The notes beneath the pieces were generated by a model. That model made no database searches. It was given only the letters and a program-made list of their open reading frames with translations, and was not told where the DNA came from. Below are positions 6,472 through 39,080 of a DNA stretch of 64,000 bases, piece by piece (the first letter of the stretch is position 1; each line of letters begins with the position of its first letter). The translations under genes and the position numbers were made by a program. The stretch is from Synechococcus sp. GTDB taxonomy: Bacteria; Cyanobacteriota; Cyanobacteriia; PCC-6307; Cyanobiaceae. The stretch spans positions 760,202 through 824,201 of the forward strand of contig JBJBEO010000001.1 in assembly GCA_047284725.1 (NCBI GenBank), written 5' to 3'.

Positions 6472-6550
6472 CAGCCTCCCGGGGAAGCGCACCCGCCGGT
6501 GTAAGGTATTCAGGTCGAAGGCCAAGCCTGAGGGTGTTGCCGACGATCAT

Positions 6551-6623
6551 GGGGCCATAGCTCAGCTGGTAGAGCACCTGCATGGCATGCAGGGGGTCAG
6601 GAGTTCGAGTCTCCTTGGCTCCA
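6551..6623 (+). tRNA. tRNA-Ala(GGC)
   Basis: GGGGCCATAGCTCAGCTGGTAGAGC...; anticodon arm CCTGC-AT-GGC-AT-GCAGG; T-loop GTTCGAG; ends GGCTCCA. Confidence 0.97.
6577..6623 (+). repeat. att core, left copy (3' 47 bp of tRNA-Ala)
   Basis: CCTGCATGGCATGCAGGGGGTCAGGAGTTCGAGTCTCCTTGGCTCCA, identical to 32806-32852. Confidence 0.95.
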
Positions 6624-6718
6624 TTCTTAAAAGCCCAGTTAACCACTGGTTTTTTGGCGGCTTCAAGACCGCTTTTTTGTTGTCCGACTACGGCTGGCTA
6701 TGGCCTGTTAGGGCTGTT

Positions 6719-8765: not shown

Positions 8766-9476
8766 ATGACTGCCCAAAAATTGAGCAGCCAAGAGGCCCG
8801 TGTTCCCTCAAGGCTAAGTGAAACCCTGCTAGGTAGGCAGGGTGTCAGTGCACCCAAATCAACTGATACAACTAGTAGGTCTAGACCTACAAAACCGCGT
8901 TTAGGTCAGTTTTTAGAGCAGAAGCTGACCAGATCAGGACGTAAGACCCCATGCGCTTGTGGTCGCGTCAAAGACGGTGACTGCCGCTTCAGCGACAACA
9001 CACTGTTCTGCCACAACAGCCCGCTGCAGGACCAATTCCGGTGGCGTGGTCAAACGTGGTTCTTGCATCGCACCAACTGCGGCCATACGGGCGCTTGCAA
9101 CCTCTACAAGCCATGGCCGCCAGCAGATCAACGCCGTTGCCATAGGCCATCGGCAAAACGCCATGTCAGCACTAGATGGCGACGGCTCTTGCCTCAGTTC
9201 ATTTCTGAATGGCGGGAGGCAATGGCGTGCCCTGAATTTGAACTGTGCAGTCCCGATGAGCTGCGCCACTACTTCAAGGCCATTTACCGGGCGGAATACA
9301 AGGGCGAACAGCTGTTGCCGCTGTTGGTTGATGCCGCCAGGCACAACCCCCAATACCGGCAGTTTGTCATCGCTGTGCAGCACAAGCTCAAGACCTTGCG
9401 ATACCAACGCCGTGACGTTGATTGCTTCCGCAAAAACGATCTCGGCTGTCCTGAACTCAACGGGTGGCTGTCATGA
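8766..9476 (+). CDS. Putative primase-associated Zn-finger protein
   Basis: PCACGRVKDGDCR...LFCH Cys/His cluster; ATGA overlap with the AAA gene. Confidence 0.55.
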   Translation: MTAQKLSSQEARVPSRLSETLLGRQGVSAPKSTDTTSRSRPTKPRLGQFLEQKLTRSGRKTPCACGRVKDGDCRFSDNTLFCHNSPLQDQFRWRGQTWFLHRTNCGHTGACNLYKPWPPADQRRCHRPSAKRHVSTRWRRLLPQFISEWREAMACPEFELCSPDELRHYFKAIYRAEYKGEQLLPLLVDAARHNPQYRQFVIAVQHKLKTLRYQRRDVDCFRKNDLGCPELNGWLS

Positions 9477-10492
9477 GCGAATACGACTTCAACCCTCTTG
9501 ATGACCTGATTGACAAAGGTGCTCAGGGGTGTGTGCACGAACTAGGAAAAATCTGGCGAGTGTTCCTGATTGCTGTCAGCGGCATTGTTCTGCTGGCCGC
9601 TGAACGTGGCACCGGCAAGACCACGTTCGTTAATCGGTTCCTTGAGGCGATCCAAGAAGGCTTTGACTTCCTAGGTGCGTTCAAGGTCACCAAGGGCAGG
9701 TGCCTGTTGATCCAAGGTGATGAGCCCAAAGAGCATGCTCAAGCCGTCTACAGGCAGCAAGAACTAAAGCAGAACTGGGATGTCATCTACCCGAAGGAGC
9801 CATTCCCAGTTGAATTGCTCCTGAAGGCCATTGAGTCAAAGCAGTACGACGCAATCTGCATCGACTCTTTGACCACTGTTCTATGCAGTGAGAGCAGGCG
9901 GACGGTTGATTCAGAACTGGTCGACCTGCTTTACGAGTTGAACAAGGCGGCAGTTGATGCTGGCGTCTTGATCCTTATGACTGCCCACCTCATCAAGGCT
10001 CCAAAAGACGGCAATGGCGTTCGGCAGCGCCGCCAAACAGTTCAGTGGGATGACATCGCTGGCCTTGGAACCATCAGTGCAGCAGTTCAAGACTGCTGGG
10101 GTTTAGCTCCAGCAGGTCAGTACTTCAGCCTGCATGCCCTGGGCAAACGGAACATCAAAGAGGGCACCAAATGGTTGCTGGATCGTGAGGCTGAATCCTT
10201 TGACTGGTGGTTGATTGACGATCAAGACCAGCAGCTACCCGAGGAACGACAACTGCTTTCAGATCAGATCCTGAGCCATGTCAAACAACATGGCTACTGC
10301 TCGATTGCTGACCTCACTAAGGCCACTAGAGCTGATGCGGAATACATCCGCGTTTGCTGTGTTGACCTGTTCACGCAGGGCAAGCTGCAGCGCCACAAGA
10401 GGAAGTCAAATGAGGATCCCCCAAAGCGGGGCAGACCTGCCTTCCTATACGGCGTTGGTGATTTTTCCTGTATTACGCACACAGGCCCCTGA
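9473..10492 (+). CDS. AAA ATPase/RepA-like helicase with C-terminal HTH
   Basis: Walker A AERGTGKT, Walker B ICIDSL, ILMTAHLIK; C-terminal wHTH ending in RGRP. Confidence 0.8.
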   Translation: MSEYDFNPLDDLIDKGAQGCVHELGKIWRVFLIAVSGIVLLAAERGTGKTTFVNRFLEAIQEGFDFLGAFKVTKGRCLLIQGDEPKEHAQAVYRQQELKQNWDVIYPKEPFPVELLLKAIESKQYDAICIDSLTTVLCSESRRTVDSELVDLLYELNKAAVDAGVLILMTAHLIKAPKDGNGVRQRRQTVQWDDIAGLGTISAAVQDCWGLAPAGQYFSLHALGKRNIKEGTKWLLDREAESFDWWLIDDQDQQLPEERQLLSDQILSHVKQHGYCSIADLTKATRADAEYIRVCCVDLFTQGKLQRHKRKSNEDPPKRGRPAFLYGVGDFSCITHTGP

Positions 10493-15290: not shown

Positions 15291-15353
15291 CGACAGGGCC
15301 AAGTTCTGACTTGCATCCTCCATTATGTTCCCAGGAGCTCTGCCGAAAAGTAT

Positions 15354-15470
15354 TCAGCGCCGCCGCCCCCGTGGCGTTGCCGTCGTGCTCAGCCCACACA
15401 GGATCGACAGTTCTCTGATGGCACCGACGACAGCGGCAGGCTGCCCACGCTTTGCAGCATCACCCGCCGT
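15354..15470 (-). pseudogene. 3' relic of a TerS-like gene (paralog of 27710-28057)
   Basis: Translates TAGDAAKRGQPAAVVGAIRELSILCGLSTTATPRGRRR*. Confidence 0.8.
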
Positions 15471-15507
15471 CTTTTCAGTATCTGAATCGACAAGCGATCA
15501 AGTCCTA

Positions 15508-15900
15508 GTGATCAAACGGCTGCTCCCCCTAGCGGCAATGCTGCTTGCCAGTTGCACTGCTGCTGCTGGCCCGTACCCCGAGGTGCAGATTGCTCGTTGC
15601 TACGACGGCGATACCTGCACCAGCACCACCGGAGAGAAGATCCGGCTGGCGTGCATCGACACGCCAGAGCTACAAGGGCGAAATGCTGATCCAATTCCAG
15701 CGAAAGCTGCACGGGACTATCTGCGTGGCTACCTGAAAGGGAAGACCATCACCATCCGCCGCATCGATACCGATCGCTATGGCCGCACCGTGGCGGAGCT
15801 GTTTGCGGACGGGGTGAATGTCCAGCAACAGTTGGATGCGAGCGGGCATGCAGAGGTCTACCACCGTTACGCCAAACAGTGCCCATGGACAAATCACTGA
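15508..15900 (+). CDS. Thermonuclease (SNase) family, probable lipoprotein
   Basis: DGDT, IRLACIDTPE and DRYGRTVA motifs; lipobox LASC; GTG start inferred. Confidence 0.85.
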   Translation: MIKRLLPLAAMLLASCTAAAGPYPEVQIARCYDGDTCTSTTGEKIRLACIDTPELQGRNADPIPAKAARDYLRGYLKGKTITIRRIDTDRYGRTVAELFADGVNVQQQLDASGHAEVYHRYAKQCPWTNH

Positions 15901-18524: not shown

Positions 18525-19580
18525 ATGCGCCGCCTTTCAGCACTGCTTACAGCCTTGATGCTGCCAACCGCGCAGCCACTGCTGCTGGGTGCGGTGGCAT
18601 CAACTGCTGTTGTGGTCTCGCAAGTACCTGCCCAGGCGCAAAGCGCAGAAGCGGTCGCTCAGATTGCTCAAGCGATCACAGTGCGCATTGAAGGTGCCAC
18701 GCAGGGCTCAGGCGTCCTGGTGAAGCGTGAGGGCAATCGCTACACGGTGCTGACCGCCTGGCATGTGGTGAGCGGGCAACGAGCAGGAGAAGAGCTGGAC
18801 ATCTATACCCCTGATGGGCAGCGCCATTCGGTTGAGCCAGGCAGCATCCAACGCTTGGGGCAGGTGGACATGGCGGTGCTGAGCTTTGTCAGCTCAGGCT
18901 CTTATGAGCTGGCACGGGTTGGTGATGTCGGTAGTGTCAAAAGCGGTGGACCGATTTATGTCTCGGGCTTTCCCCTGTCGACGTCATCGGTGCCGAGTCG
19001 TATTTTTCGCTTTTTGAAAGGCGACGTGATTGCTAACGCAACAGTTGCCATTCCCAATGGATACCAGCTTCTGTATTCCAACCCGACGCTGCCTGGGATG
19101 AGCGGAGGTGCGGTGCTGAATGGTCAAGGGCAGCTTGTTGGTATTCATGGTCAGGGGGAGACCGACATCAATTTGACAGAGCAGCAGGGCGTAGCTGTCA
19201 AGACAGGCACTAATCAGGCAGTGCCGACGACGTATTACAACCAGCTGCTTTCAAATTCCGTTGTTGTTTCCTCCTCATCCCAATCAAGAGGTGCTGACAA
19301 TTATCTAGTACAAGCAAAGGTTTTATTGGGCCTTAGAGGGCGAGAGAAAGAAGTCGTTAGGCTTTCCAGCCAAGCCCTAGCCATGCAAGAAAGTGCAGAA
19401 GCATTTCTATATCGTGCTAATGCTAAAGCAGCCTTGGGAGAAAATCAAGGTGCTACTTCTGACTACGAAAAAGCAATTTTAATAAACCCGCGATACTCAG
19501 CGCCTCGTTATCGTCTAAGACTTCACAAAAGCCGCAAGCGCTTTATCCAAAAACAATGGGACGCGCTTCCTGGTTATTGA
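18525..19580 (+). CDS. Secreted trypsin-like serine protease with TPR
   Basis: Signal peptide, TAWH, DMAVL and GMSGG triad motifs; C-terminal TPR, probably truncated. Confidence 0.85.
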   Translation: MRRLSALLTALMLPTAQPLLLGAVASTAVVVSQVPAQAQSAEAVAQIAQAITVRIEGATQGSGVLVKREGNRYTVLTAWHVVSGQRAGEELDIYTPDGQRHSVEPGSIQRLGQVDMAVLSFVSSGSYELARVGDVGSVKSGGPIYVSGFPLSTSSVPSRIFRFLKGDVIANATVAIPNGYQLLYSNPTLPGMSGGAVLNGQGQLVGIHGQGETDINLTEQQGVAVKTGTNQAVPTTYYNQLLSNSVVVSSSSQSRGADNYLVQAKVLLGLRGREKEVVRLSSQALAMQESAEAFLYRANAKAALGENQGATSDYEKAILINPRYSAPRYRLRLHKSRKRFIQKQWDALPGY

Positions 19581-20106: not shown

Positions 20107-20145
20107 CAAAAGAGAAGGCCGCCCTTCCCGATGGAAAGACGGCCT
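20107..20145 (-). terminator. Minus-strand intrinsic terminator-like hairpin (copy 1)
   Basis: AGGCCGTCTTTCC/GGAAGGGCGGCCT stem (G-U pairs only on the minus strand) followed by TCTCTTTT; homolog near 25569. Confidence 0.6.
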
Positions 20146-20196
20146 ATCTCGCTCGTTTACGCATGGTTCAACCCATCACTGCAGAAGAGAGATGAG

Positions 20197-20530
20197 GGTC
20201 GAAGCTGCTGGTTAGAGGCGCCCTGGGGCCATTTGCTCTAGGTGTTGGGTCGTTTTCTCCGAGGGCACCTGAAGCGGTGCAAGTGGAGCGTCGATTGGCG
20301 TGGCGTCCCTTTACGTGCCTACCCAAGGACCAACCCAGGTCGTTTTTGAGACTGTTGGAGCAGGGGCCAGAAAGTCAGCGTGCTTCTTGCTTTTGCTCTG
20401 GTGGAGTATCGGCCGTCATTGGCGCCTCCGATTTCGGTGACCACACTCTCCACCCGCTACGCCGAACTGCCTACCCGTTGTCTTGCTCATTGCCTTCAGA
20501 TCGGAATCCACCGACACTGAGACCGGCGTG
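20197..20530 (+). ncRNA. Candidate structured ncRNA A, copy 1 (~335 nt)
   Basis: Homologous to 25695-26032 with compensatory changes in several stems; last 93 nt identical. Confidence 0.65.
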
Positions 20531-20562
20531 GCTAAGGAAGAGGACACCCTGACGGGGAAACT

Positions 20563-20655
20563 TCAACGCCGCCAACCCCGTGGCGTTGCCGTCGTGCTCA
20601 ACCCGCACAGAATCGTCAGCTCTGCAACAGCACCGACAACAGCGGCAGGCTGCTG
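20563..20655 (-). pseudogene. 3' relic of a TerS-like gene
   Basis: Translates QPAAVVGAVAELTILCGLSTTATPRGWRR*. Confidence 0.8.
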
Positions 20656-20858
20656 CTCTGTATCCACTCAAGTAGCAAGGCAAAGCAGCAAGACGTAGCC
20701 CACTTACGAGCCGCAGAAGCTCAGCGTCAGATGGGGTTTTTTCCTGGCTTTACTTGTCAGAGCCCGACAGCGGACCCAGCACCAACGCCTGGGTGAAGAA
20801 AGGGTTGAACACCTGCGCTAGAGATGTTCCACACACCTTCGAAACAGCAGTTCGCCCG

Positions 20859-21056
20859 ATGTGGATGCGACCCCTCTTGTTGGCAATAGCACTGATCGCG
20901 ACAGGTTCTGCAGCTTTGGCTCAGACCTGCAAGTCGTTCAGCAACTGCGAGGAAGCTGTCGAGTCACTCCGATCCGGCAACTCAAGGCTTGATCGCGATA
21001 AAGACGGCGTTCCCTGTGAGTCTCTGTGCGGAAAGAACGGCGAGAACATGCGTTGA
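20859..21056 (+). CDS. Secreted Excalibur calcium-binding domain protein
   Basis: Signal peptide; CKSFSNC...LDRDKDGVPCESL. Confidence 0.8.
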   Translation: MWMRPLLLAIALIATGSAALAQTCKSFSNCEEAVESLRSGNSRLDRDKDGVPCESLCGKNGENMR

Positions 21057-21667
21057 GACGGGCTTGCTGTTTGCTGCTCTGGAGTTTCGCTGCAGTACCG
21101 GTCCATGCGGCGACTGTGGTCTCTGTCGGTGATGGGGACACCATCAGAGTTCGTGAGGGTGGCAGGGCCATCACGATTCGTTTGGCCTGCATCGACGCTC
21201 CAGAGACGTCTCAGAGTCCTTACGGCATGCGTTCTCGCTTGGCACTGAGTCGGCTGCTCCCCATCGGTTCTGAGGTGTCCTTGCGTGCACAAACAGTGGA
21301 TCGCTACGGCAGAACTGTGGCTGAGCTTCTGAACTCCCGTGGAAATATCAACCAGCGGATGGTGGGCAGTGGCCAGGCATTCGTGTATCGCAAGTACCTG
21401 GAGAAGTGCGACGCAAGGCAGTACCTCTCCCTGGAACGCCAGGCTCGAAACACGGGCGTTGGCGTGTGGTCAATCGGCCCCTCAGGCATCACCCGCCCAT
21501 GGGACCACAGGCGGTCTCGCCGGGGTGGCAAGCAGAGGACTGGTTCGTCTCGCCGATGGCGTTGTGCAGACATCGGCTCATGGCAGCAAGCACAGCGACT
21601 TCTGATCCAAGGCCATGCATACCTCGATGGTGACGGCGATGGTGAAGCGTGCGAATCGCTCCGGTGA
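21026..21667 (+). CDS. Thermonuclease with C-terminal Excalibur domain (start probably ~21053)
   Basis: DGDT, IRLACIDAPE, DRYGRTVA; C-terminal LDGDGDGEACESL. Confidence 0.88.
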   Translation: MRKERREHALRRACCLLLWSFAAVPVHAATVVSVGDGDTIRVREGGRAITIRLACIDAPETSQSPYGMRSRLALSRLLPIGSEVSLRAQTVDRYGRTVAELLNSRGNINQRMVGSGQAFVYRKYLEKCDARQYLSLERQARNTGVGVWSIGPSGITRPWDHRRSRRGGKQRTGSSRRWRCADIGSWQQAQRLLIQGHAYLDGDGDGEACESLR

Positions 21668-21993: not shown

Positions 21994-22233
21994 ATGCCAA
22001 TGTTTCTTGATGTTCACCCGATGAAGCCTTTCACAGCAGATCAACTCAACTCTCTTCAGAATGCGCCTGCAGACGAGTTTGGTGTTACTCATCACGATAT
22101 CCTGTACAGCGAAGAAGATGATCGCATTTACTGCATCCTGAATGCTCCCAGCGCTAAGGCAGTTCACCAGCACCATCAAAAGGCCGGAATTACCTGTGAC
22201 TGGGTGCAAGAAGTAAGCTCAACTCGCCTATGA
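21994..22233 (+). CDS. DUF4242 / SCO4226-like nickel-binding protein
   Basis: MPMFLDVH...IYCILNAPSAKAVHQHH pattern. Confidence 0.75.
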   Translation: MPMFLDVHPMKPFTADQLNSLQNAPADEFGVTHHDILYSEEDDRIYCILNAPSAKAVHQHHQKAGITCDWVQEVSSTRL

Positions 22234-22373
22234 CTCGGTCAGAACAACTAATAGATATATCAGCCATTTACTGTCTTATTATTTCTGTACTTTTTGCTCT
22301 GCTGATTTCTGATGCTGTCGCTTATCGGGCTAGGATGCTCAGTTAACTTCCTTTGCCCGAATTTGATCTACAA

Positions 22374-22400
22374 CGCCCCCGTAAGACAGGGGGCTTTTTT
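22374..22400 (+). terminator. Intrinsic terminator
   Basis: GCCCCC...GGGGGC stem followed by a T run. Confidence 0.65.
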
Positions 22401-22446
22401 GCGCATCTGGAGAATCTCGGTCAACCAGGACCTGACCCTCAGCACG

Positions 22447-22650
22447 ATCAATGTCCCCGCCTAGGGGTATCGATCCCTTATGGATCGGGAGTTGAGTCCT
22501 TTTGTGGGGCTCTTGGCGAGAGAACGAGAGCCCCATGGAGCACTTGCCCTCTTCCTTCCGGGGGCTGGTGCTCTCATGCGAGCAAACGTCCTCGTTAGGG
22601 GGTATCTGCAATGGAGATCGCTGTCCCAAGTTGGACGCAAGGCAAGGGAG
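22447..22650 (+). ncRNA. Candidate structured cis-regulatory RNA B, full copy
   Basis: Hairpin, H-type pseudoknot and further stems that covary across three copies; ends at the SD of 22657. Confidence 0.65.
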
Positions 22651-22656
22651 GTGTAA

Positions 22657-22887
22657 ATGACCCTGATCTCTAAAGGAAAAACAGACGACAGTTGCATCGG
22701 CAGGACGTGCCTGAAATGGTCTCCAGATGGGTCTCTATCAGATTTCGACAAGGACTTACTAGTGAGGCGACTTTGCGCATCTGATCCAGAGTTTTCTAAA
22801 TCAGATGCATGCCGAATCCATCAATTTGATGATCTTTCTCAGGCTCTCAACACGGCTCCCTCAATACAGATCAATGTCCCCACTTAG
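22657..22887 (+). CDS. Small hypothetical protein
   Basis: GGAGG SD; CIGRTCLKWSPDG motif. Confidence 0.7.
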   Translation: MTLISKGKTDDSCIGRTCLKWSPDGSLSDFDKDLLVRRLCASDPEFSKSDACRIHQFDDLSQALNTAPSIQINVPT

Positions 22888-23001
22888 GGGTATCGATCCC
22901 TCATGAGTCGGGAGTTGAATTCACCTGTGGGGGCTTGACGGCATAGAGGGGTCCCACAGAGCACCGGCCTCTTCGCCTAAGGGGGCTGGTGCTCTCCTGC
23001 G
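22870..23001 (+). ncRNA. RNA B copy 2 (3'-truncated)
   Basis: ATCAATGTCCCC..TAGGGGTATCGATCCC...GAGCACC...GGTGCTC, homologous to copy 1. Confidence 0.6.
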
Positions 23002-23074
23002 CAGAAATCAACCAATCCCCTTCAACGCTGATCGCAGCAACAACAGATCACCCGCAGCGATCTCAACCGGTGCA

Positions 23075-23398
23075 TCAGGTGCCGTCCACGGTGAGATCCC
23101 ACCCATCGTGACCTTGGCCCTGCCGATCGCGGTTGTAGTAACCCTCAATCCAGAATGCCAGATCGCTCTGCAGCTGTTTGGGATCGAGCAACTCCTTGCG
23201 GCTGTCGTCCAGGGCGAATTCGATCTTGAGAGTGGAGAAGAAGCTCTCCACCACTGCGTTATTCCAGCAGCAGCCCTTGGCTGACATGCTGCAGCTGATC
23301 TTGTGCTTTTCCAGCAGCTCTCTGTAGTCGGTTGTTCTGTACTGGCTTCCTTGATCGGTATGGATGAGCAGTTGGTCAGGTGTGACCTGGCTGGCCAA
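23075..23398 (-). pseudogene. IS3-family transposase fragment (integrase core)
   Basis: IHTDQGSQY, SMSAKGCCWNNAVVESFFSTLK and YYNRDR; N-terminus absent. Confidence 0.88.
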
Positions 23399-23515
23399 GG
23401 GCTCGGTTGAGGGCCTCGATCACAGGCTGGAGCCGCCGCCATCTCAAGCAGTGAGCGGGTTTTCAAGCGCGGCCGCTCTTCCTAAGGTTCGGGAGAGCGG
23501 CCTGTCTATTGCCTG

Positions 23516-24418
23516 GTGTCTCTGCGAGCTCGTTTCATTCCCATCCTGATCGGAGTGGCTGCCCTATGCGGCAGTTCGGCTGTCGCCCAGGTCCTGAAGA
23601 TGGACTACCAAAACAACCGCATGAGCGGTTCGTTGCGCAGCGGCGCCGTGGAGGTCAACGTGGAACAGCAGCGGCGGATCAACGAGTCCGGATCGAATGT
23701 GCTCCAGCCGGTGGCTGTCGTTCGTGTGAATGGCAACGAGGTCGGTCGGCTCGTTGGCGCCGAGAAATGGGGTGGCAGTCCAGCTGCGGTGGTTCAGATC
23801 GCAGAAATGGATCCGGAGAACCCTTACCCCGAAGTTCTGCTCTCTTCCTTCACCGGAGGTGCGCACTGCTGCAATCAGATCCAGGTGCTCACCAGCGATC
23901 GCAGCGGGCTGACCTGGCAAGAGGTGACACTCGGGCCTTTCGACGGGGGTGAGTCACCAGCAGAGGACCCGTTGCGGAATGGCCGCTTCCTGATCGTCGA
24001 TGTCGACAACCGGTTCCTCTATCGCTTTGCCTGCTATGCCTGCAGCACCGCACCTGCCCGCATCTGGCAGCTGCAGGGCAATGCATTCGTGGATGTGTCC
24101 CATCGGCTTGAGTTCACACCACTTCATCGCCGCAACCTGCAGCGCATGGCCGACTGGTTCCAACAGAAGAACCCTGGGTCGCCGAATGGATTTCTGGCCG
24201 GTTACGTCGCCAACAAGGCGCTGGTGGGCGAGCTGTATGACGGCTGGGATCGCATGACCCAGCGCTACGACTCCTCAGACTGGGGGTTGAAGGAGTGCAA
24301 GGGCGACCTGGATAACAACGGCAAGTGCCGCTGGGAAATCGTCTACAGCTCTTTCCCGGAAGCCTTGCGGGCCTTTCTGATCGACACTGGTTACATCAAG
24401 CCAACCGGTGAGCAGTAG
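23516..24418 (+). CDS. Secreted hypothetical protein
   Basis: Signal peptide; FTGGAHCC motif. Confidence 0.75.
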   Translation: MSLRARFIPILIGVAALCGSSAVAQVLKMDYQNNRMSGSLRSGAVEVNVEQQRRINESGSNVLQPVAVVRVNGNEVGRLVGAEKWGGSPAAVVQIAEMDPENPYPEVLLSSFTGGAHCCNQIQVLTSDRSGLTWQEVTLGPFDGGESPAEDPLRNGRFLIVDVDNRFLYRFACYACSTAPARIWQLQGNAFVDVSHRLEFTPLHRRNLQRMADWFQQKNPGSPNGFLAGYVANKALVGELYDGWDRMTQRYDSSDWGLKECKGDLDNNGKCRWEIVYSSFPEALRAFLIDTGYIKPTGEQ

Positions 24419-24793
24419 CCCTGCACAGCAACAGTCCTACGAGGACGAAGCCAGCCCTTTGATGCAAGCCGAGTGACAGTCGCAACCCCATTACGACCGT
24501 TACTTGCGTCAAGCCGGTGAGGGCTCACTGACCTGTTGATCCACAACCGCGCGCCGTCTGCACCATGTGAACTCGGACGTATCAGCTCCCCCACCAGGGG
24601 ACTTTTTTTGGGGTTTTTCGATGAAGTGGATGCTGCTTCTGGTGCTGGTGGTGATTGGCGTCGGGACCCTGATGGGGACGACGGCGCCGCCGATGCTGTG
24701 AGCTGACCTAAGCGGGCTTATGGCAGCCATCGCCACATCGGTTACGCCGCTTTTGCCGCGATGCTGTGAAATGTGCCGTTTGAAAGGCAGAGA

Positions 24794-24985
24794 ATGACCA
24801 ACAGCACTCCAAACCTCGTTGCCTGGCTGGTTGAATACAGAAAGTATTTAATCCTCGTCGCCGATGGTGCCAACGATGAGGCTGCACTTCTAAAGCAAGA
24901 AATTGAGGAGGGTCTCAATTGGGTTGAACTGACTTGGGCTGACCTTGAATTTGCAAATGATTCTGATCAGTCTCTGCGCCATTGA
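24794..24985 (+). CDS. Small acidic hypothetical protein
   Basis: Plausible helical 63-aa ORF with upstream AAGG. Confidence 0.55.
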   Translation: MTNSTPNLVAWLVEYRKYLILVADGANDEAALLKQEIEEGLNWVELTWADLEFANDSDQSLRH

Positions 24986-25694
24986 TCATCCCGTCCGTGT
25001 GTTGGCACGCCTGTGGCGTTGAATCTGGTGAAGTACGGGAATCCGATCGGCGGCTCAAAGCAATACGTCCGTAGACCGTTCAAAGATTTTGCTCAGTTAT
25101 GACAATCGATCTGTCAGGCGGCGCCCCCATCGGCTCGTTCATCTTTGAAGGCAAGCACGCACCTTTCCGTGCTCTCGCCTGTCCATTGCACGCCATAACA
25201 ACGGGCTCAGAGGAATCTCCTTTAGATTCAGCTCAAAGCCGCCGCGCCCGCCGCGCTTGAAGATTCTCTAGTTGACGTAACTCCTATTTCGTCAAGTGAG
25301 GGCTCACTGGCATTCGATGCACGCACGATTCTTGTGTCTACGTTGCGAGGGTCGTCCTCTTCAGGGACATGGGATTCGACGGAGTAGACAAGACAGACCG
25401 GTTCATCATTGCCGCCAAGCGACGTGCCGAAGCTGCATTGCATGAAACGTCTCCAAAGCTGACGGCACTTGAGAAAGCGATGTGGCTCAAGTTGAAGCGA
25501 GGTGAACGCCCCTGCAAAAACAGCAAGGCTTCCTAGGTAACTGCTCACCTGCACTTCAACAAAGTAGGAGGCCGCCCCTCCCTAGTGGAAAGACGGCCTA
25601 CCTCGCTCGTTTGTGCATAGCAATCGACCTAATCAGTGATGCTGTATCCGTGAAGCGTGGTTGCTTACCGAAGAACAGTGAACTGAAAGAAGAA

Positions 25695-26032
25695 GGTCGA
25701 AGCGACTTGGCTATGGCATCCCTGGGGCCATGACGTCCAAGTGTGTGGCGTTGTATCCCCGGGTCACCTTTCGCGCGGTGATGTGGGGTGTCGATTGACG
25801 TGGCGTACAGCTAAGTGCCTGCCAAAAGACCGTGCCTCACGGGTGGGTGGAAACTGTTGGAGCAGGGGCCAGAAAGTCAGTCTGCTTCTGCAATCTGGTT
25901 GGGTGGAGTGTCGACTGTCATCAGCGCCTCCGATCTCGATGACCACACTCTCCACCCGCTACGCCGAACTGCCTACCCGTTGTCTTGCTCATTGCCTTCA
26001 GATCGGAATCCACCGACACTGAGACCGGCGTG
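25695..26032 (+). ncRNA. Candidate structured ncRNA A, copy 2
   Basis: See 20197-20530; preceded by the homologous minus-strand hairpin beginning at 25569. Confidence 0.65.
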
Positions 26033-26271
26033 CCGAGGGTCAGCTGGAACGCAGCCGTGACAACTCACGTGACGCCCTGATCACCTGGTGTCTGTCATCT
26101 GAGAATTCGATCACGGCCTCCAAGTCAGCCATTTGCTGAGCATTTCCATATCTCGCAACTCACCAGCAGCATTAGATTCTTCCGATATCTCAGCAACTAG
26201 TATTTTCACTAGCTTCTTTCGATCAGTGCTAGGCACCGTAGATTTGTCCAAAGCCGTCTCTAGCTGAATCC

Positions 26272-26466
26272 GTGGAGCTATTCTTCGCTCTTGGTATCCC
26301 TGCCATTTTATTGATCGGGAGCGCGTTTCTCTTGGCTAATGGGAATGGTCAGTTACGGACAAAGCTTCTGCGTTTTGCAACCAGTGGACCACTATCTCAG
26401 GCATGGAATTTTGGCATCATCTTCATGGTCGTTGTCTCGATCATTGTTTACGTAGCTAGACGATGA
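26272..26466 (+). CDS. Small two-TM membrane protein
   Basis: Two hydrophobic segments. Confidence 0.5.
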   Translation: MELFFALGIPAILLIGSAFLLANGNGQLRTKLLRFATSGPLSQAWNFGIIFMVVVSIIVYVARR

Positions 26467-26536
26467 TGCTGCTGAATTAGGTCTTGACGTTTTGCACTCT
26501 GTTCGGCATAAATGGCATAACGATATCGGCTGTTCA

Positions 26537-26905
26537 ATGCTTACTGGTACTGAACTCTTGGCTAAGGTCAAAGACCTTGGTGACGTCTCCAAATCCGACT
26601 TGGCTACTGCCTGTGGCTACGTGTCGGACAAAAAGGATGGTGGCCAGAGGGTCAACTTCACAGCCTTTTATGAGGCCCTCCTGAACGCCAAAGGAATTGA
26701 CCTTGGATCTGGTGGTGGTGCCGGTCTTGGCAAAGGCGGAAGAAAGCTGTCCTACACAGCCAAGGTGCAGGGAAACGGGAATCTGCTGATCGGCAAGGCG
26801 TATACCGCAATGCTGGATCTGACTCCCGGTGACGAATTCGATATCAAACTCGGCAAGAAGGCAATCCGTCTGATCCCTGTTGGGGGTACTGAAGAGGAGG
26901 AGTGA
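26537..26905 (+). CDS. AbrB-like transcriptional regulator (cyanobacterial type)
   Basis: MLTGTELLAKVK...ACGY...NFTAFYEALL...VQGNGNLLIGKAYT. Confidence 0.9.
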   Translation: MLTGTELLAKVKDLGDVSKSDLATACGYVSDKKDGGQRVNFTAFYEALLNAKGIDLGSGGGAGLGKGGRKLSYTAKVQGNGNLLIGKAYTAMLDLTPGDEFDIKLGKKAIRLIPVGGTEEEE

Positions 26906-27044
26906 CTTCCAAAGTCACCTTTCATCCCTGTTGGTGGCGCTGACTGAGACTCAGGAGGCCAACCGAACCTTTCCTGACGGTTCTCCTACTCCTCAATTCG
27001 ATTCGTCTGATCGAAGGTGGATGAGTCGAGTCATGAGGGCACAT

Positions 27045-27082
27045 GACCTCTGAGGAGTGGGAACTCTCAGGGGTCTTTTTTT
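27045..27082 (+). terminator. Intrinsic terminator with a competing upstream pairing
   Basis: GACCTCTGAG...CTCAGGGGTC followed by a T run. Confidence 0.65.
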
Positions 27083-27709
27083 GCATCCCTGTTAGTGGCG
27101 CTGAAGAGGAGGAGTGAGTTAGACCTTTACCGGAGGAACACATCCGTATGAGAGGTGCTTTGTCGGCACCTCTTTTTTTCGGGTCTCCTATTGTCCCTTT
27201 TCGAGTTTTGTCTCACTGATAAGACTAACCTGTCCTTCCTTTTCGACCGCCACGTTTTTCAAGCTTCCTCCTTAGTCTGCGCCCAGAATGGGCTTTTCAA
27301 TGATCAATGTTGGTTATGCCACTCTGAAATGGTGGAAGGAACGCATTGATCAATTAACCAGTCAAGGGCTTCGAGAAGAGGCATTTGCCCTTTATTTGGA
27401 ATTCACGTCAGACGGTTGCGAGCTTTAGAACTCCTTCCTGAGACGAGGGTGTTTTGCCCCAGGCTCTCGATGCATGAAAAATTTGAGAGAGGGGTAAATG
27501 GCGTCTCAACATCTCCTGTTTCTGGAGCGGGTCAAGTCCCAAGCTTTTTAATACTCCAAGAGGGTAGGGCGCCATCGATGCATTGAAGAGAGCACCCTCT
27601 GACCGCCAATCAGAGGGCTTTTCAATGGCCGCGCAGAATCAGAACAACGCCCAAGCTGCCATTTTTTGCACGTCCACCTGCAGGCGGAGGCGTTCTTACT
27701 CGGCAATCC

Positions 27710-28057
27710 TCACCGCCGCCAACCCCGTGGCGTTGATGTCGTGCTCAAGCCACACAAATTCGACAGTTCCCTGACGGCGCCAACGACAGCAGCAGGTTGC
27801 CCACGTCTTGCGGCATCACCCGCTGTCTCCTGCAACGTATGAACAGCCCAAGCCACCAGGTCCTTGCGATCAAGCGGCTGAACGTCAGCACGGATTTGTT
27901 CCCATGCACGGGCTAGGAGCCTGTGACACTGCCGCTGACTCAATCCCCATTCGTCTGCCGCAAACCTGACGGCGGTGCTGTTGCTGCTGCCGCTAAGGAT
28001 CATTGCCTTGAGAGTTGCGACCCTGTCAGCGATCTGTTTGTTGGTGGATCGGGGCAT
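27710..28057 (-). CDS. Small-terminase-like helical protein
   Basis: HTH-like N-terminus (EWGLSQRQCHRLL) and helical C-terminus; similar to 31754-32074; function inferred from context. Confidence 0.5.
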   Translation of the reverse strand: MPRSTNKQIADRVATLKAMILSGSSNSTAVRFAADEWGLSQRQCHRLLARAWEQIRADVQPLDRKDLVAWAVHTLQETAGDAARRGQPAAVVGAVRELSNLCGLSTTSTPRGWRR

Positions 28058-28361
28058 CGCACTCGGTTAGTTGAACTTGAACGGTCAGCTCGCGCAGTGT
28101 TGTCCTCATCGCAGCGGCAAACAGGATGATCAGATCAGGTAGCAGCTCAGGGAAGGTGCCTTGCTGTTTGGCTGATTCAGCAGTGTCGGCACACCCTTAA
28201 CCAGTCTGGTGAGTGCCGCGGCCAACCAGTGCGTGAGCTGAAGCAGTGCCAGTTTCTACCGACTGGCAAAACACGAAAACCCTCTGTTTCTCAATCACTA
28301 GTGAGGGCGGACTGCACAAATGCCCCTTTCCCTGACCCAAGGGTGACAAGCCACCACAAAC

Positions 28362-28676
28362 TTATTGGCATTGATCGCTTACATGATCAGCGGCTTCTTT
28401 GTCGCCAAGATAAGATGCTTTTCTCCAGTCTGAACAGGCGCCATTTAGATCTCCGTCCATTTCCTTTGCGATTCCGCGATTGTAGTAAGCATCACCATCC
28501 CGCGGATCAATCTTTATGGCCTTATCACAATCAGCAATTGCCCCCTGATAATCAGTTAATAAATACCTAACAGCACAACCAAGGACATATTTGTCAGCCG
28601 TAGAATAACCACAACCGGTCGATCCAATCGCTAGCACAGGCAGCAAAAAAGCAATAGCAGTATTCCTGTAAGGCAT
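28362..28676 (-). CDS. Short TPR protein
   Basis: DYQGAIADCDKAIKIDP...AYYNRGIAK...GACSDWRKA. Confidence 0.75.
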   Translation of the reverse strand: MPYRNTAIAFLLPVLAIGSTGCGYSTADKYVLGCAVRYLLTDYQGAIADCDKAIKIDPRDGDAYYNRGIAKEMDGDLNGACSDWRKASYLGDKEAADHVSDQCQ

Positions 28677-28856
28677 TTAAGGGGGTGTTCACCTCCATCA
28701 AGATAGGAGGGCGGCACTTCGTCCCTAAGTCGCGGCTTTGCCGCGGCCAACTAGCGGATGAGTTGAGTGGTCTGAATCGCACCACCCGTGAGACGATGGA
28801 TGTATCAACAGGGCATCGTCTCTCGCGCCGGTTGATCACCACAGCATTCACAACCA

Positions 28857-28997
28857 ATGACCAGCGCCGATCGAGTGGTGGTCCTCTACGAGCTCTACAC
28901 GAAGCTCGATGAGTTGATCACCGCTGAGGAGATGGAGGCGTATCCATTCCTCGAACACCTGGCCGACTTAAATGAAGACCTGGAGGGCGACGCCTGA
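28857..28997 (+). CDS. Small acidic hypothetical protein (46 aa), not in the ORF track
   Basis: MTSADRVVVLYELYTKLDELITAEEMEAYPFLEHLADLNEDLEGDA*. Confidence 0.4.
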   Translation: MTSADRVVVLYELYTKLDELITAEEMEAYPFLEHLADLNEDLEGDA

Positions 28998-29161
28998 TCT
29001 CTCACCCCTGTGCACTGTCCTGGCTGGCGATCCTGATCACACTTCCAGTGATCGTGCTCGCCTGGGCCTGCGAATCGAAATCACAACAGATCCGTTGATG
29101 GCGCTTATGTGGTCAGACCTGGGCTACCGTCGCCGCTCCTTGTTTTGGAAATATTTATGCT

Positions 29162-29572
29162 TTATTGATTGTTAGGGCATGGAAAACGTCTTCTGTTTAT
29201 AGGCACAAGTTTCCTCTCCATGTCACTCAGCAATTCATCGGAATAGTTTAGCTTGCAAGACAAGCAGCCCCTTTCGGACGCTAATTGTTTTGCTCTCTGG
29301 AACAAGAGAACATCATTTTTGTATGCGGATGGATCTTCTTTTGCCCATTCCTTATTTTGCTCTACATGGGTGATTGCTATGGCAAGTACATCTATTCCAC
29401 CGTATTCATAGTTTTTGCAATAAATGTCTGCATATGTTTCTGATCCGCTTCTTACGTATTCCTCGTCGATTAAGTTGGCGCTTGCTTCAGTGTGCAGGCT
29501 TGATGAAGTGAATATTGAAATTAGCGAAAAAATAAGAAGCGGTCTTTTCACGAGGGCGACTCGACTATGCAA
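29162..29572 (-). CDS. Secreted hypothetical protein
   Basis: Signal-peptide-like N-terminus. Confidence 0.55.
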   Translation of the reverse strand: MHSRVALVKRPLLIFSLISIFTSSSLHTEASANLIDEEYVRSGSETYADIYCKNYEYGGIDVLAIAITHVEQNKEWAKEDPSAYKNDVLLFQRAKQLASERGCLSCKLNYSDELLSDMERKLVPINRRRFPCPNNQ

Positions 29573-29672
29573 ATTTTACAAATGGATGCAGGTCATTGTT
29601 GGTCTCCGACCTAAAACCTAGTCAAGTGTGGTTTTTGGTTTGGTTGAGCATGGAACAGCAAACCTCAACACG

Positions 29673-29783
29673 ATTAATGTCCCCACCTAGGGGTATCGAT
29701 TCCTCATGGATCGGGAGTTGAATCCGCTGGCGGGGCTTTGACGGCACGGAGGGATCCCACAGAGCACCTGCCTTTTCGCCCAA
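29673..29783 (+). ncRNA. RNA B copy 3 (3'-truncated)
   Basis: ATTAATGTCCCCACCTAGGGGTATCGATTCCTCATGGATCGGGAGTTGAATCC... Confidence 0.55.
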
Positions 29784-29836
29784 TGATGTTGAGTGTTAAC
29801 ATCATTTACAAGTATGTTTAATTCTAAATCAAAAGC

Positions 29837-30154
29837 ATGCTCAATGCCTCTGTTGTTGTTTGCTCAATTGGAATTGCTTTTAATTTTTTTATTCAGCTTT
29901 TTTTGAATGGCTTGGTCCTTATTTCTCCTTGTGATATGCCTTGGATGGAAGGATATGGCGATGATTGTTGGTCTACTAGCGGGATTATGATATTTCATCA
30001 TCTTGCATGCTCTGTCGCCCTATTTGTCTCAGGCTTAGCGGGCTCGCTTTTGCTCCTCAAGAGCACAAGGCGCGAGAAATCCTCCTATGCAATTTGTAGT
30101 GCTGTTTTATTTGGATCTTTTGTCCAACTAATTAATGCATTGATGTATTTTTGA
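29837..30154 (+). CDS. Small membrane protein
   Basis: Three TM-like segments; AT-rich. Confidence 0.5.
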   Translation: MLNASVVVCSIGIAFNFFIQLFLNGLVLISPCDMPWMEGYGDDCWSTSGIMIFHHLACSVALFVSGLAGSLLLLKSTRREKSSYAICSAVLFGSFVQLINALMYF

Positions 30155-30454
30155 TCTAATAGTGTCTTTTGTGATTTTGCAGGATTGACCTTATGATCTC
30201 GATGTTCTTTTGATCTCCATCGCCTACATCCCCCACCGATGCTTAGAGCTGAGCTAAAAGCCCACTAGCGGCTCAGCCAAGGTGGCCCGATCAAAGAGCC
30301 AGTACATGTACTTCTTCCGCTAAGCCTACACCCGTAGATTGACCAAGTAATATCTATTCTTTGCCTGCAAGCAGTTGCGCGGAACTTCAGTGTGTTGAGG
30401 GAGGATCTGCTGAAACTATATAAATCCATGCTATAAATAGATTTTTATTGTTGA

Positions 30455-30823
30455 ATGACTGCAACAATTGAGGTCACAGCCCTGACACCAGAATCGTTCG
30501 AGTCTTTAAAAATACGAGAAGGCATCATGCTAGAGGGAGAGACAGTCACCGTCTCCTACAAAGGCATTAGAGACATGCTAATTCTCACCAACAAAAGATT
30601 GCTGCTTGTCGACAAGCAAGGATTGACGGGGAAAAAGCAAAAATACTTGTCAATCCCCCTTGACAAAATCAATGCATTTTCTGTTGAGACTGGTGGTACA
30701 TTGGATTTCGATTGTGATATTGACATTTACGTCTCTGGGATGGGCTATGTGCATGCAGAAATAATGAGACCCACTAAAAATATGGATCCGCTTGTGGACG
30801 CCCTAAACGATCTTCTCTTTTAA
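30455..30823 (+). CDS. Bacterial PH domain protein (bPH_1)
   Basis: IRDMLILTNKRLLLVDKQGLTGKK...SIP...FSVET. Confidence 0.85.
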   Translation: MTATIEVTALTPESFESLKIREGIMLEGETVTVSYKGIRDMLILTNKRLLLVDKQGLTGKKQKYLSIPLDKINAFSVETGGTLDFDCDIDIYVSGMGYVHAEIMRPTKNMDPLVDALNDLLF

Positions 30824-31753: not shown

Positions 31754-32074
31754 TCACTTGAGCACCTGTGCCAACTCACACTGAAGCCTGATTGTCCCAA
31801 TCATTGCGGAATGGTTTTCACGCTTGGCTGATTTCATGAGCACGTCTTCAAGTTGGAAGAGTTTGCGAGCCATGAACTCTTTTCTATCTTCATCGACAGC
31901 TTCTTTGATCGCATCCTTTGCTTTACGGATAAGGAGGTCAACGCCACCGCGTTTCAGCCCCCACTCTGTTCGTCCGTGTTCAAGCAATCCAGGGCGTTGC
32001 ACACCGTTAGCGATCATGTAGACAAACTGTTGAACGCGGAGTTCAGTCTCGGCTTGAGTGGCTTTTCTTCCCAT
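31754..32074 (-). CDS. Small-terminase-like helical protein
   Basis: MGRKATQAETELRV...EWGLKR...DRKEF; similar to 27710-28057. Confidence 0.5.
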   Translation of the reverse strand: MGRKATQAETELRVQQFVYMIANGVQRPGLLEHGRTEWGLKRGGVDLLIRKAKDAIKEAVDEDRKEFMARKLFQLEDVLMKSAKRENHSAMIGTIRLQCELAQVLK

Positions 32075-32344
32075 GGATTCATTCTGCCAAGGGTTTAATG
32101 TCCGATGAGCCCATTTCATTCTTCAAGCTTTGGCCCTTAAGTAGACGGCTGATATGTAGTTAATAAGCGCATCGTGACGAGCAGTCACGCAAAGCTAATG
32201 GCAACCACTAATGGATCCAGCAAATCCTTCAGCTTGGAACTGCTTCAGCAATGCACTGCCAACAACATGGATGGGGATCGTGTCTTCTGACTACTCAACA
32301 GCAGGACTAGCGATTAACACTATTCTACAGAAGTTCGTTCGCAT

Positions 32345-32805: not shown

Positions 32806-32852
32806 CCTGCATGGCATGCAGGGGGTCAGGAGTTCGAGTCTCCTTGGCTCCA
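32806..32852 (+). repeat. att core, right copy (partial tRNA-Ala)
   Basis: 47/47 identity to 6577-6623; lacks the tRNA 5' part. Confidence 0.95.
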
Positions 32853-37388: not shown

Positions 37389-37390
37389 CG

Positions 37391-37450
37391 ACGTTCACCT
37401 CCTCGTCGGGGAGGCGCAGTTCGATTCAGGCCATGGAACGGGGACCTGAA
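37391..37450 (+). ncRNA. Glutamine-II (downstream-peptide) riboswitch
   Basis: CGTTCACCTC...GAGGCGCAG...TCAGGCCATGGAACGGGGACCTGA, with CGTTC/GAACG and TCAGG/CCTGA pairings, upstream of a DUF4278 ORF. Confidence 0.85.
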
Positions 37451-37811: not shown

Positions 37812-39080
37812 ATGCCTCTCAAGCGTCAGGACAGGCTCACGCTCCAGGGTCTTCTGCAGGCCCTGGGCCCTGGCATTCTTCTGGCGGCAGCAGCGATTGG
37901 TGGCTCCCACCTGGTGGCGTCAACCCAGGCCGGTGCTTTGTATGGCTTGGGTCTCCTCGGGCTGCTGCTGCTCGCCAATCTGTTCAAGTACCCCTTCCTC
38001 CTGGTGGGCAGTCGTTTTACGGCTGTGACCGGACGGAGTCTTCTGGAGGGTTACGTCCGGCACCGTCCCTGGTATCTGCCTCTTTATCTTCTGATCACGC
38101 TGAGCACGGGTGTCGCCAACATCGCCGCTGTCGTGCTGCTCGCTGGCAGCCTTGCCACAGCCTTTCTTCCTTGGGCGGCGGGCCCCCTGGCCCTCCTGCT
38201 CCTCACAATCTGTCTGCTGATCCTGCTGCTGGGCCAGTATCGAACCCTGGATCGACTGAGCAAGGTTGTGGTCAGTCTTCTGGTGCTCTGCACGGTCGCT
38301 GCCACTGCAGTTGCGTTGGTGCGTGGACCCTCTGTCAGCGATCTGAGCGTTCTGTTCACGCCCTCTCCCTGGACGCTGGCCTCCCTTCCTTTTGTCGTGG
38401 CACTCCTGGGCTGGATGCCCTGTCCTCTTGATCTATCGGCCTGGTCTTCGTTGTGGATTTATGCACGCGAGCAGGACTCGGGTCACCACAGCACCCCTGC
38501 TGAAGTCGAGGCCGACTTCAAGATCGGTTATGCCGCCACCGTGTTGATGGCTGTGTTGTTCCTCGTTCTCGGTGCGTGGGTGATGCACGGAACGGGAACG
38601 ATATTCTCTCCGCAGGGAGCGGCCTTCTCCCAGCAACTGATTGAGCTTTATACAGCGACTCTGGGCTCATGGGCCTATCCCCTGATTGCCTTCACGGCCT
38701 TCATCACAATGTTCAGCACAGCGCTCACGTGTCTGGATGGCTATCCCCGCTCCGCTTCTGCTGCGCTGCGTCTCTGGCAAGGCCATGAGGGCAGGGCTGT
38801 TCTCAACGCTGCCAGTCAGAGGCTCTGGATCTTGATCCATTTCGGACTGGCGGCCATGGTTCTGGCCTGGTGGAGCGGTTCGATGGGGTCTCTGGTGACA
38901 TCGGCGATGTGGATTTCCTTCCTGACCACGCCCGTGCTGGCTTGGATGAATCTTCAGGTGATGCAAAGCTCGCAGGTGCCCCCCGAAGACAGATTCGGCC
39001 CGGGTCTGCGTCTGACGGCCTGGACAGGGCTCGGCTTCTTGACGTCGTTGGTTGTGTTGTTCCTGATGACACGACTCTGA
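37812..39080 (+). CDS. NRAMP-family divalent metal transporter-like protein
   Basis: LGPGILLAAAAIGGSHLV...GA.YG...KYPF; about 11 TMs. Confidence 0.8.
   Translation: MPLKRQDRLTLQGLLQALGPGILLAAAAIGGSHLVASTQAGALYGLGLLGLLLLANLFKYPFLLVGSRFTAVTGRSLLEGYVRHRPWYLPLYLLITLSTGVANIAAVVLLAGSLATAFLPWAAGPLALLLLTICLLILLLGQYRTLDRLSKVVVSLLVLCTVAATAVALVRGPSVSDLSVLFTPSPWTLASLPFVVALLGWMPCPLDLSAWSSLWIYAREQDSGHHSTPAEVEADFKIGYAATVLMAVLFLVLGAWVMHGTGTIFSPQGAAFSQQLIELYTATLGSWAYPLIAFTAFITMFSTALTCLDGYPRSASAALRLWQGHEGRAVLNAASQRLWILIHFGLAAMVLAWWSGSMGSLVTSAMWISFLTTPVLAWMNLQVMQSSQVPPEDRFGPGLRLTAWTGLGFLTSLVVLFLMTRL

Follow-up and report, generated by a model that had tools for sequence, protein, structure and literature searches.

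A 64,000-nucleotide (nt) stretch of a Synechococcus sp. genome (GenBank assembly GCA_047284725.1, contig JBJBEO010000001.1, positions 760,202 to 824,201; hereafter, the window) raises the question of what kind of element has been placed three times, always on the plus strand, within a tRNA-associated island. The original prediction, made from the nucleotide sequence, described copies at 22447, 22870, and 29673 of the window as a pseudoknotted leader RNA and a candidate orphan riboswitch. The first part of this proposal stands, as the copies are a structured, RNA-like element of the plus strand whose pairing has been selected, but its identity as a riboswitch is unlikely. The reading that we tentatively prefer, with a confidence that stays short of an even chance, is that the copies are units of an uncatalogued and rare structured RNA repeat of ∼155 nt (∼163 nt with its spacer), which comes from the mobile DNA of the island and acts as plus-strand RNA.

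All three copies were recovered by nhmmer with a profile built from them, at E-values in the range of 1e-40 to 1e-48 (22441-22595, E 2.8e-46; 22864-23022, E 5.5e-48; 29667-29791, E 2e-40), which confirms the predicted set. The sole extra match in the window was a minus-strand echo of the palindromic P4 helix (E 0.064). A covariance model run over the whole 64 kb with its filters off found no fourth copy; its runners-up were P4 palindromes and noise at E-values of at least 0.15. Conservation begins ∼15 nt upstream of the predicted start, at the block CCCTCA(A/G)(C/T)AC, and the flanks beyond this point are unrelated among the copies. In copies 1 and 2, conservation reaches approximately column 140 of the alignment, through a tail with the sequence GCTCTC.TGCG (a score reached by 14 of 1000 shuffles). 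Both copy 2 and copy 3 had been described as cut. This holds for copy 3, which stops inside the P4 loop at ∼29785 with AT-rich DNA after it, but not for copy 2, which runs intact to the end of P4 and on through a 40-nt spacer. Homology there ends at 23035, and the transposase relic has cut what followed (∼23036). At the other end, the start of copy 2 overlaps the stop codon of ORF76, a gene for a small Cys-rich protein. The differences between copies have no codon periodicity (13/13/16, 15/8/15, and 12/5/10) and each reading frame carries a stop in at least one copy; the repeat is therefore noncoding, and a coding fragment was ruled out.

Two observations concern the edges of the copies. A weak P1-like hairpin immediately 3′ of copy 1 may be the remnant of a further unit, at marginal significance (Table 1). 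The idea that another unit preceded copy 1 was dropped because the homology between the copy 2 spacer and the far upstream flanks of copies 1 to 3 was not significant (271, 525, and 354 of 1000 shuffles, respectively). In addition, a perfect 9-bp inverted repeat, AATGATGTT..AACATCATT (29781-29805), lies exactly where copy 3 is cut and the AT-rich DNA starts, and might mark where an inserted segment ends.

The 5′ hairpin (P1), the H-type pseudoknot (stems A and B), and the further stems (P3 and P4) that had been predicted are present in all copies. In the three-row alignment of the copies (A2), 96.1% of the 103 cells are standard pairs, a value that falls to 36 to 57% when the partners are slid by one to three columns. 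P1 forms seven of seven pairs and is invariant. Stem A (UCCC/GGGA) is formed by all four pairs in every copy, with one C-G to U·G change. Stem B (GGAU/GUCC, GAGU/AUUC, and GGAU/AUCC) likewise retains four of four pairs in all copies, through one double-sided change (G-C to A-U, columns 37:52) and two one-sided changes. In P3, pairs form in 90% of the cells; there is one double change, and three cells are broken in copies 2 and 3, two of which fall in copy 3. P4 is 96% paired, and its variation is confined to the 5′ strand, where a pyrimidine always stands opposite G. A possible extra helix, in which UCARY of the upstream block pairs with an invariant GUUGA, would enclose the core; its changes are one-sided only. 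Between copies, 46 to 48 of the 53 columns of the 5′ core are identical, and in columns 54 to 128 copies 1 and 2 agree in 43 of 73 columns. A conserved core combined with drifting helices is a conservation pattern typical of functional RNA.

Selection on the pairs was gauged from how the substitutions are placed. Across the 72 columns of P3 and P4, copies 1 and 2 are separated by 29 substitutions (19 transitions and 10 transversions), and 22 of 23 pairs are kept. When the same substitutions were placed at random, a mean of 13.9 pairs was kept and 22 was reached in 1 of 20,000 trials (P = 5e-5). When every helix is counted, the same two copies retain 37 of 38 pairs, a number that no simulation reached. 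Base pairing in the element is under selection. The pairing is also specific to the plus strand, because each copy has five to seven G·U pairs that favor it: copies 1, 2, and 3 form 38, 37, and 24 pairs on the plus strand, and 33, 30, and 19 when the helices are read on the minus strand. The corresponding fold z-scores are −3.5, −2.9, and −0.24 for the plus strand and −2.75, −0.59, and +1.08 for the minus strand.

Units related to these copies were found outside of this genome. A protein-collection search with the minus-strand open reading frame (ORF) that runs through copy 1 returned one foreign cluster, P0002 (73 aa, E 6.5e-9, on a 775-nt contig), and tblastn revealed that P0002 is a read-through of two units. 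On that contig, the units are arranged head to tail with a period of ∼163 nt and no space for a gene between them, and their inter-unit spacer is homologous to the spacer of copy 2. Because the P0002 inter-unit spacer also follows copy 2, we infer that a further unit probably lay behind copy 2 originally.

The P0002 units also bear on whether the core forms a pseudoknot or a simple hairpin. Instead of stems A and B, RNAalifold and the minimum free energy (MFE) fold of copy 1 favor H2, a hairpin of 6 bp between columns 25-30 and 36-41 that cannot form together with the pseudoknot. In copy 2, a C/A at 29:37 disrupts H2, and stem B has a compensated pair there (A-U at 37:52). Parsimonious back-translation of P0002 yields 39 U>C in both foreign units and 38 A>G together with 27 A>C in one of them. 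In the units so deduced, stem B is fully paired (C-G at 39:50, G·U at 38:51), and unit B′ has a C/C mismatch in H2 at 27:39. Across the five units, three from DNA and two deduced, the pair 39:50 is U·G, U-A, or C-G, the pair 37:52 is G-C or A-U, and the pair 38:51 is A-U or G·U. The single strands between the stems, CGGGAGUUGA and UAUCGAU, are unchanged in the three copies, and the P0002 units force a change at one single-strand position only (27, within UAUCGAU). Since stem B stays paired through its changes and H2 breaks in copy 2 and in B′, the comparison supports the pseudoknot over H2, with two of the five units deduced from amino acids.

Based on these findings, we propose that the units would be modular noncoding RNA rather than a leader dedicated to a single gene, transcribed putatively by read-through or from an unrecognized promoter. 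The RNA would fold into the P1 hairpin and an H-type pseudoknot of 4+4 bp, on which UAUCGAU and CGGGAGUUGA are displayed as invariant single strands. These single strands of the core could be a binding surface for a protein or a small molecule, and tandem units would multiply that surface. P3 and P4 are long hairpins whose sequence drifts while their pairing is kept. The placement of copy 1 as a 5′ leader of ORF76 would then be happenstance, and any effect on ORF76 is conjectural. Should the element prove to be a functional RNA, it would represent a new structured RNA family outside all Rfam models, with the tRNA-targeting integrative islands behind gene exchange among marine picocyanobacteria as its carriers, and the ∼55 nt of P1 and the pseudoknot would be a compact target for probing and partner search. 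Rarity limits the generality of the finding, and a mere hairpin repeat would be an ordinary by-product of island turnover.

Several results weigh against this proposal. The first group concerns distribution. A scan of 185,579 species genomes with a 19-nt core pattern returned 11 chance loci, none of which matches the nhmmer profile (0 of 11) and none of which is from marine Synechococcus or Prochlorococcus; either the pattern is too specific or the family is truly absent there. Among 5.8 billion protein clusters, there is a single foreign read-through ORF cluster, and a query of protein clusters with the copy 3 frame gave no candidates. Likewise, blastn found no match to copy 1 with its leader in phages and plasmids or to copy 2 with its spacer in phages, and a narrow literature search found no described RNA that matches the element. 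The element is very rare. The second group concerns the structural evidence. The predicted covariation of stem B stands in its four kept pairs and one double-sided change, but formal shuffle controls of covariation are not significant with three sequences (80 and 108 of 500 shuffles reach the score and the number of double-sided changes, respectively, and an additional control gives 66 of 500), which is why the separate random-substitution test was run. Restricted to the pseudoknot region, that test gives P = 0.13, and two of the five units that speak for the pseudoknot were deduced by parsimony from protein rather than read as DNA. Copy 3 is truncated, has 3 of 27 pairs broken, and folds no better than shuffled sequence (z −0.24), which marks it as a decaying copy. 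As to transcription, a terminator-like hairpin (22375-22394) sits 40 nt before copy 1 and a promoter scan found no conserved promoter near the copies. Lastly, selection on hairpins is also expected of selfish DNA repeats that are merely co-transcribed. It should be added that P0003, a 1501-aa repeat protein (E 1.3e-4) and the sole match of a plus-frame HMMER search of 1.84 billion representatives, was judged to be unrelated.

This last point leads to the first of the alternatives, namely a selfish or structural repeat of the REP/BOX/ERIC or miniature inverted-repeat transposable element (MITE) kind, the hairpins of which would be kept for propagation or for incidental RNA stability or processing, with no specific partner. 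REP/BIME, ERIC, BOX, and Correia-type MITEs are, like the element, hairpin-rich, multicopy, and intergenic, are co-oriented with transcription, and have units of 100 to 160 nt. The presence of several copies in 7.3 kb of a mosaic island, where other paralogous segments recur in matching order, head-to-tail units, a decaying copy, a transposase relic beside copy 2, and rarity beyond the lineage would all fit such a repeat. However, all copies have one orientation and, unlike these families, no terminal inverted repeats were found at the unit ends in copies 1 and 2 and their surroundings, where only internal hairpins and palindromes occur. In addition, the G·U-rich, strand-specific pairing and the invariant single strands beside a covarying 4-bp stem of the pseudoknot point to an RNA with a specific tertiary fold rather than to generic palindromes. 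On balance, we consider a selfish repeat to be unlikely.

A riboswitch or other cis-regulatory leader, in which the pseudoknot core of one or more units would recognize a ligand or protein and thereby regulate the gene downstream (ORF76 for copy 1), strikes us as improbable as well. The conserved core, the variable helices, and the mutually exclusive H2 and pseudoknot would suit a sensor, and copy 1 lies on the same strand as, and 75 nt before, a gene with a strong Shine-Dalgarno (SD) sequence. ORF76 is shared with three foreign clusters (95%, 71%, and 74% identity) that have a conserved core and four invariant cysteines in common; judged from these alignments, ORF76 is a real conserved gene, and for this reason a cis-regulatory or riboswitch role is possible for copy 1. 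ORF76 has no Pfam, PHROG, NCBIfam, or PADLOC match and no Atlas lead, tblastn against phages and plasmids gave no match, and its AlphaFold model is poor (predicted local distance difference test score of 56). The 95% relative has identical terminal residues; therefore, the junction between the stop codon and copy 2 is present there too.

Placement is the main difficulty for a leader. Three gene-leader copies had been predicted, but only one of the three copies precedes a gene: copy 2 follows ORF76, copy 3 is truncated, the P0002 units adjoin without a gene between them, and no paralogue of ORF76 occurs elsewhere in the window, including after copy 2 or copy 3. A leader reading would have the gene downstream of copy 2 lost to the transposase insertion. 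The constant position in the 5′ untranslated region of one gene family that is generally expected of a riboswitch was not seen within the window and the P0002 contig. The proposed translational control fares similarly. The loop CUUCCUU (22551-22557) of copy 1 is complementary to the SD sequence AAGGGAG (22644-22650), as predicted, but this P4 loop is not kept in copies 2 and 3 and the pairing is used in neither the MFE nor the centroid fold of 22440-22680. The SD and AUG do lie in a local hairpin (22612-22672), which could be taken in favor of a leader, but its z-score of −1.08 is no better than shuffles. P4 is absent from the list of terminators and is not an intrinsic terminator because it has no U tail. 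Moreover, the terminator-like hairpin upstream leaves ∼50 nt for a promoter, and the scan found none.

The leader reading gains some plausibility from a known precedent. Tandem aptamers before small ORFs are known among the glutamine riboswitches of marine picocyanobacteria, and a Glutamine-II aptamer is present in the window. Like the element, glutamine riboswitches (glnA RNA, Glutamine-II/Downstream-peptide) have a compact pseudoknotted core upstream of small ORFs. They differ in that the unit of the element is two to three times longer, has two added long hairpins, matches neither model in sequence or structure, and precedes a gene in one copy only. The aptamer itself is full length (37389-37450, plus strand, 69 bits against a gathering score of 33) and lies upstream of a gene for an Nramp-like transporter (37812-39080). 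Together with the putative giant repeat protein gene at the far end of the window, the aptamer would suit a marine picocyanobacterium as the source of the DNA.

A broader version of the sensor idea would place the copies in a new class of pseudoknotted sensor RNAs found specifically on mobile islands of marine picocyanobacteria, with single or tandem aptamers in which P1 is joined to a pseudoknot that competes with H2 to switch the expression of small Cys-rich, possibly metal-binding cargo such as ORF76. Such a class, which would amount to an orphan riboswitch or a protein-responsive leader that moves with island cargo, seems distinctly unlikely.

That the 5′ core is a folded DNA site for the insertion of small cassettes such as ORF76, in the manner of an attC or other single-strand recombination site, is very unlikely. 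Integron attC sites have paired R″/R′ core sites with conserved AAC and GTT triplets. The arrangement of ORF76 between copies 1 and 2 (period of 423 nt), the adjacency of the P0002 units without a gene, and the duplication of the upstream block immediately before copy 2 are what a cassette junction could produce, and GUUGAGU/GUUGAAU fits the R′ core motif and can pair with the upstream UCARY. The GTT is invariant (A2 columns 45-47), but it faces AGC in copy 1, AAT in copy 2, and the expected AAC in copy 3 only. The sole recombinase is the tRNA-adjacent tyrosine integrase 15 kb away, for which no integron-integrase model is listed and NCBIfam gives weak tyrosine-recombinase models only (PRK00283, XerD, and XerC; E 0.003-0.07). 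Because the AAC partner is not kept and there is no integron integrase nearby, the attC fit was rejected. Furthermore, P3 and P4 would be outside of such a site, yet their structure is conserved, and the fold consists of several local hairpins rather than one long imperfect hairpin. Finally, a plain, functionless segmental duplication with accidental folds is the most improbable explanation of those considered: the island is rich in duplicated fragments and copy 3 folds like shuffled sequence, but pair-preserving substitutions occur far above expectation (P = 5e-5), copies 1 and 2 have z-scores of −3.5 and −2.9, and stem B stays paired in five copies despite its changes.

Comparison with known RNA families agrees with an uncatalogued element. 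At Rfam gathering scores, the whole window contains Glutamine-II and tRNA only. A cmscan search against Rfam 15 at E ≤ 10 over 22000-30500 found nothing that overlaps the copies. With lax filters at the same threshold, stretches of 271 and 191 nt matched only microRNA and long noncoding RNA models, at 12.7 to 17.5 bits against gathering scores of 50 to 100. Several structured RNAs of marine cyanobacteria and their phages, namely manA, wcaG, Cyano-1, Cyano-2, and the Yfr families (Yfr1/Yfr2), are of roughly similar size, and manA in particular had been put forward as a candidate; all were rejected because none matches the copies in Rfam even at E ≤ 10. Transfer RNA and tmRNA were rejected with ARAGORN, which finds none at default thresholds. 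An att remnant was rejected as well: the copies align to tRNA-Ala no better than shuffled sequences do (72, 188, and 38 of 1000), without colinearity, and the tRNA 3′ end occurs at the island borders only.

Two further families deserve mention. The small pseudoknotted RNAs of type III antitoxins (ToxI-like) and the STAXI motif are arranged head to tail on mobile or defense DNA with units of a few tens of nt. The element resembles them as a tandem small pseudoknotted RNA on mobile DNA, but differs in its ∼163-nt unit and in the absence of a PADLOC, Pfam, or NCBIfam match for ORF76. A type III antitoxin RNA was rejected on that unit length and on the lack of an endoribonuclease toxin match for ORF76, and STAXI, which is in Rfam, gave no cmscan match to the copies. 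Yfr103 is described as an abundant multicopy noncoding RNA of 290 to 328 nt in marine Synechococcus and Prochlorococcus, found in many reference strains (PMC5069720). By that description, Yfr103 is like the element in being multicopy and paralogous, with a conserved predicted structure and a length of about two element units. It is set apart in that the core pattern of the element matched no marine reference strain in the genome scan. The element is unlikely to be a widely conserved family such as Yfr103, because the 11 scan loci are from neither marine Synechococcus nor Prochlorococcus and none matches the profile.

Table 1. Positions in the window of the element copies, their helices, and associated features, with the parts of the foreign cluster P0002 that correspond to them.
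Feature	Coordinates	Strand	Evidence or remark
Copy 1, full unit	22432..22586	+	nhmmer, alignment, folding, covariance model
Copy 1, upstream conserved block containing UCAGC	22439-22443 (UCAGC)	+	alignment
Copy 1, P1	22451-22470	+	
Copy 1, pseudoknot stem A	22474-22477 with 22487-22490	+	
Copy 1, pseudoknot stem B	22482-22485 with 22496-22499	+	
Copy 1, P3	22504-22536	+	
Copy 1, P4	22538-22573	+	followed by 3′ tail
Weak P1-like hairpin immediately 3′ of copy 1	22585..22606	+	marginal: 21/500 shuffles reach score; E 0.72
Copy 2, full unit and 40-nt spacer	22855..23035 (element 22870-23011; spacer 22996-23035)	+	nhmmer, alignment, covariance model
Copy 3, cut inside P4 loop at ∼29785, AT-rich DNA after	29658..29785	+	nhmmer, alignment, covariance model
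P0002 residues 1-29: 5′ core and P3 of copy 1			tblastn
P0002 residues 30-42: 40 nt following copy 2	23035-22996		tblastn
P0002 residues 43-73: P4, P3, and stem B of copy 1, different frame			tblastn
ORF76, gene for 76-aa Cys-rich protein	22657..22887	+	SD at 22644-22650, 75 nt after copy 1
Terminator-like hairpin and T run, 40 nt 5′ of copy 1	22375..22394	+	3′ of SCO4226-like gene (21994-22233)
Transposase relic (rve/rve_3 integrase core fragment), in place of whatever came after copy 2	23075-23398	−	
tRNA-Ala(GGC), left island border	6550..6624	+	
Exact 47-nt repeat of tRNA-Ala 3′ end, right island border	32806..32852	+	
Tyrosine integrase gene adjoining tRNA	6766-8034		PHROG integrase, E 3.6e-9
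AAA_25 ATPase, in island	9464-10492		

All three copies lie within a 26-kb integrative island at tRNA-Ala, co-oriented with neighboring genes. The layout of the island resembles that of the tRNA-targeting integrative elements of Prochlorococcus (10.1101/2020.12.28.424599), a likeness of layout only; the portion of that preprint consulted mentions tandem repeat junctions and contains no occurrence of noncoding, ncRNA, or sRNA. Paralogous segments occur within the island in an order that matches the element copies (20107-20530 with 25560-26032, and 20555-20653 with 27702-27800). The first pair of segments has 79 to 85% identity over ∼350 to 420 nt and shares the open frames 20277-20552 and 25815-26060. 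The former, which is the sole frame of the pair that was scanned, has no family match, and the pair could be a gene or a noncoding element. The function-unassigned small protein phrog_34910 is encoded intact at 27710-28057 and 31754-32119 (both minus strand), and fragments of it remain at 15353-15522 and 20555-20653. These fragments and the element copies occur in one order, which suggests that several related elements were integrated or duplicated serially.

The island also carries HEPN-like and DUF6998 genes, and the GC content within it drops to 0.43-0.52. Two staphylococcal-nuclease-like genes and two Excalibur calcium-binding domains (15325-15900, 20754-21056, and 21026-21667) are duplicated in the island as well. 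A trypsin-like protease with TPR repeats (18525-19580) has weak matches to defense-system protease models. At the far end of the window, an open frame of more than 2686 aa on the minus strand (55940-64000) runs out of the window and contains 13 to 14 tandem repeats of 489 nt, in each of which the 300 nt reported are 100% identical; this frame is either a giant repeat surface protein or the product of an assembly collapse.

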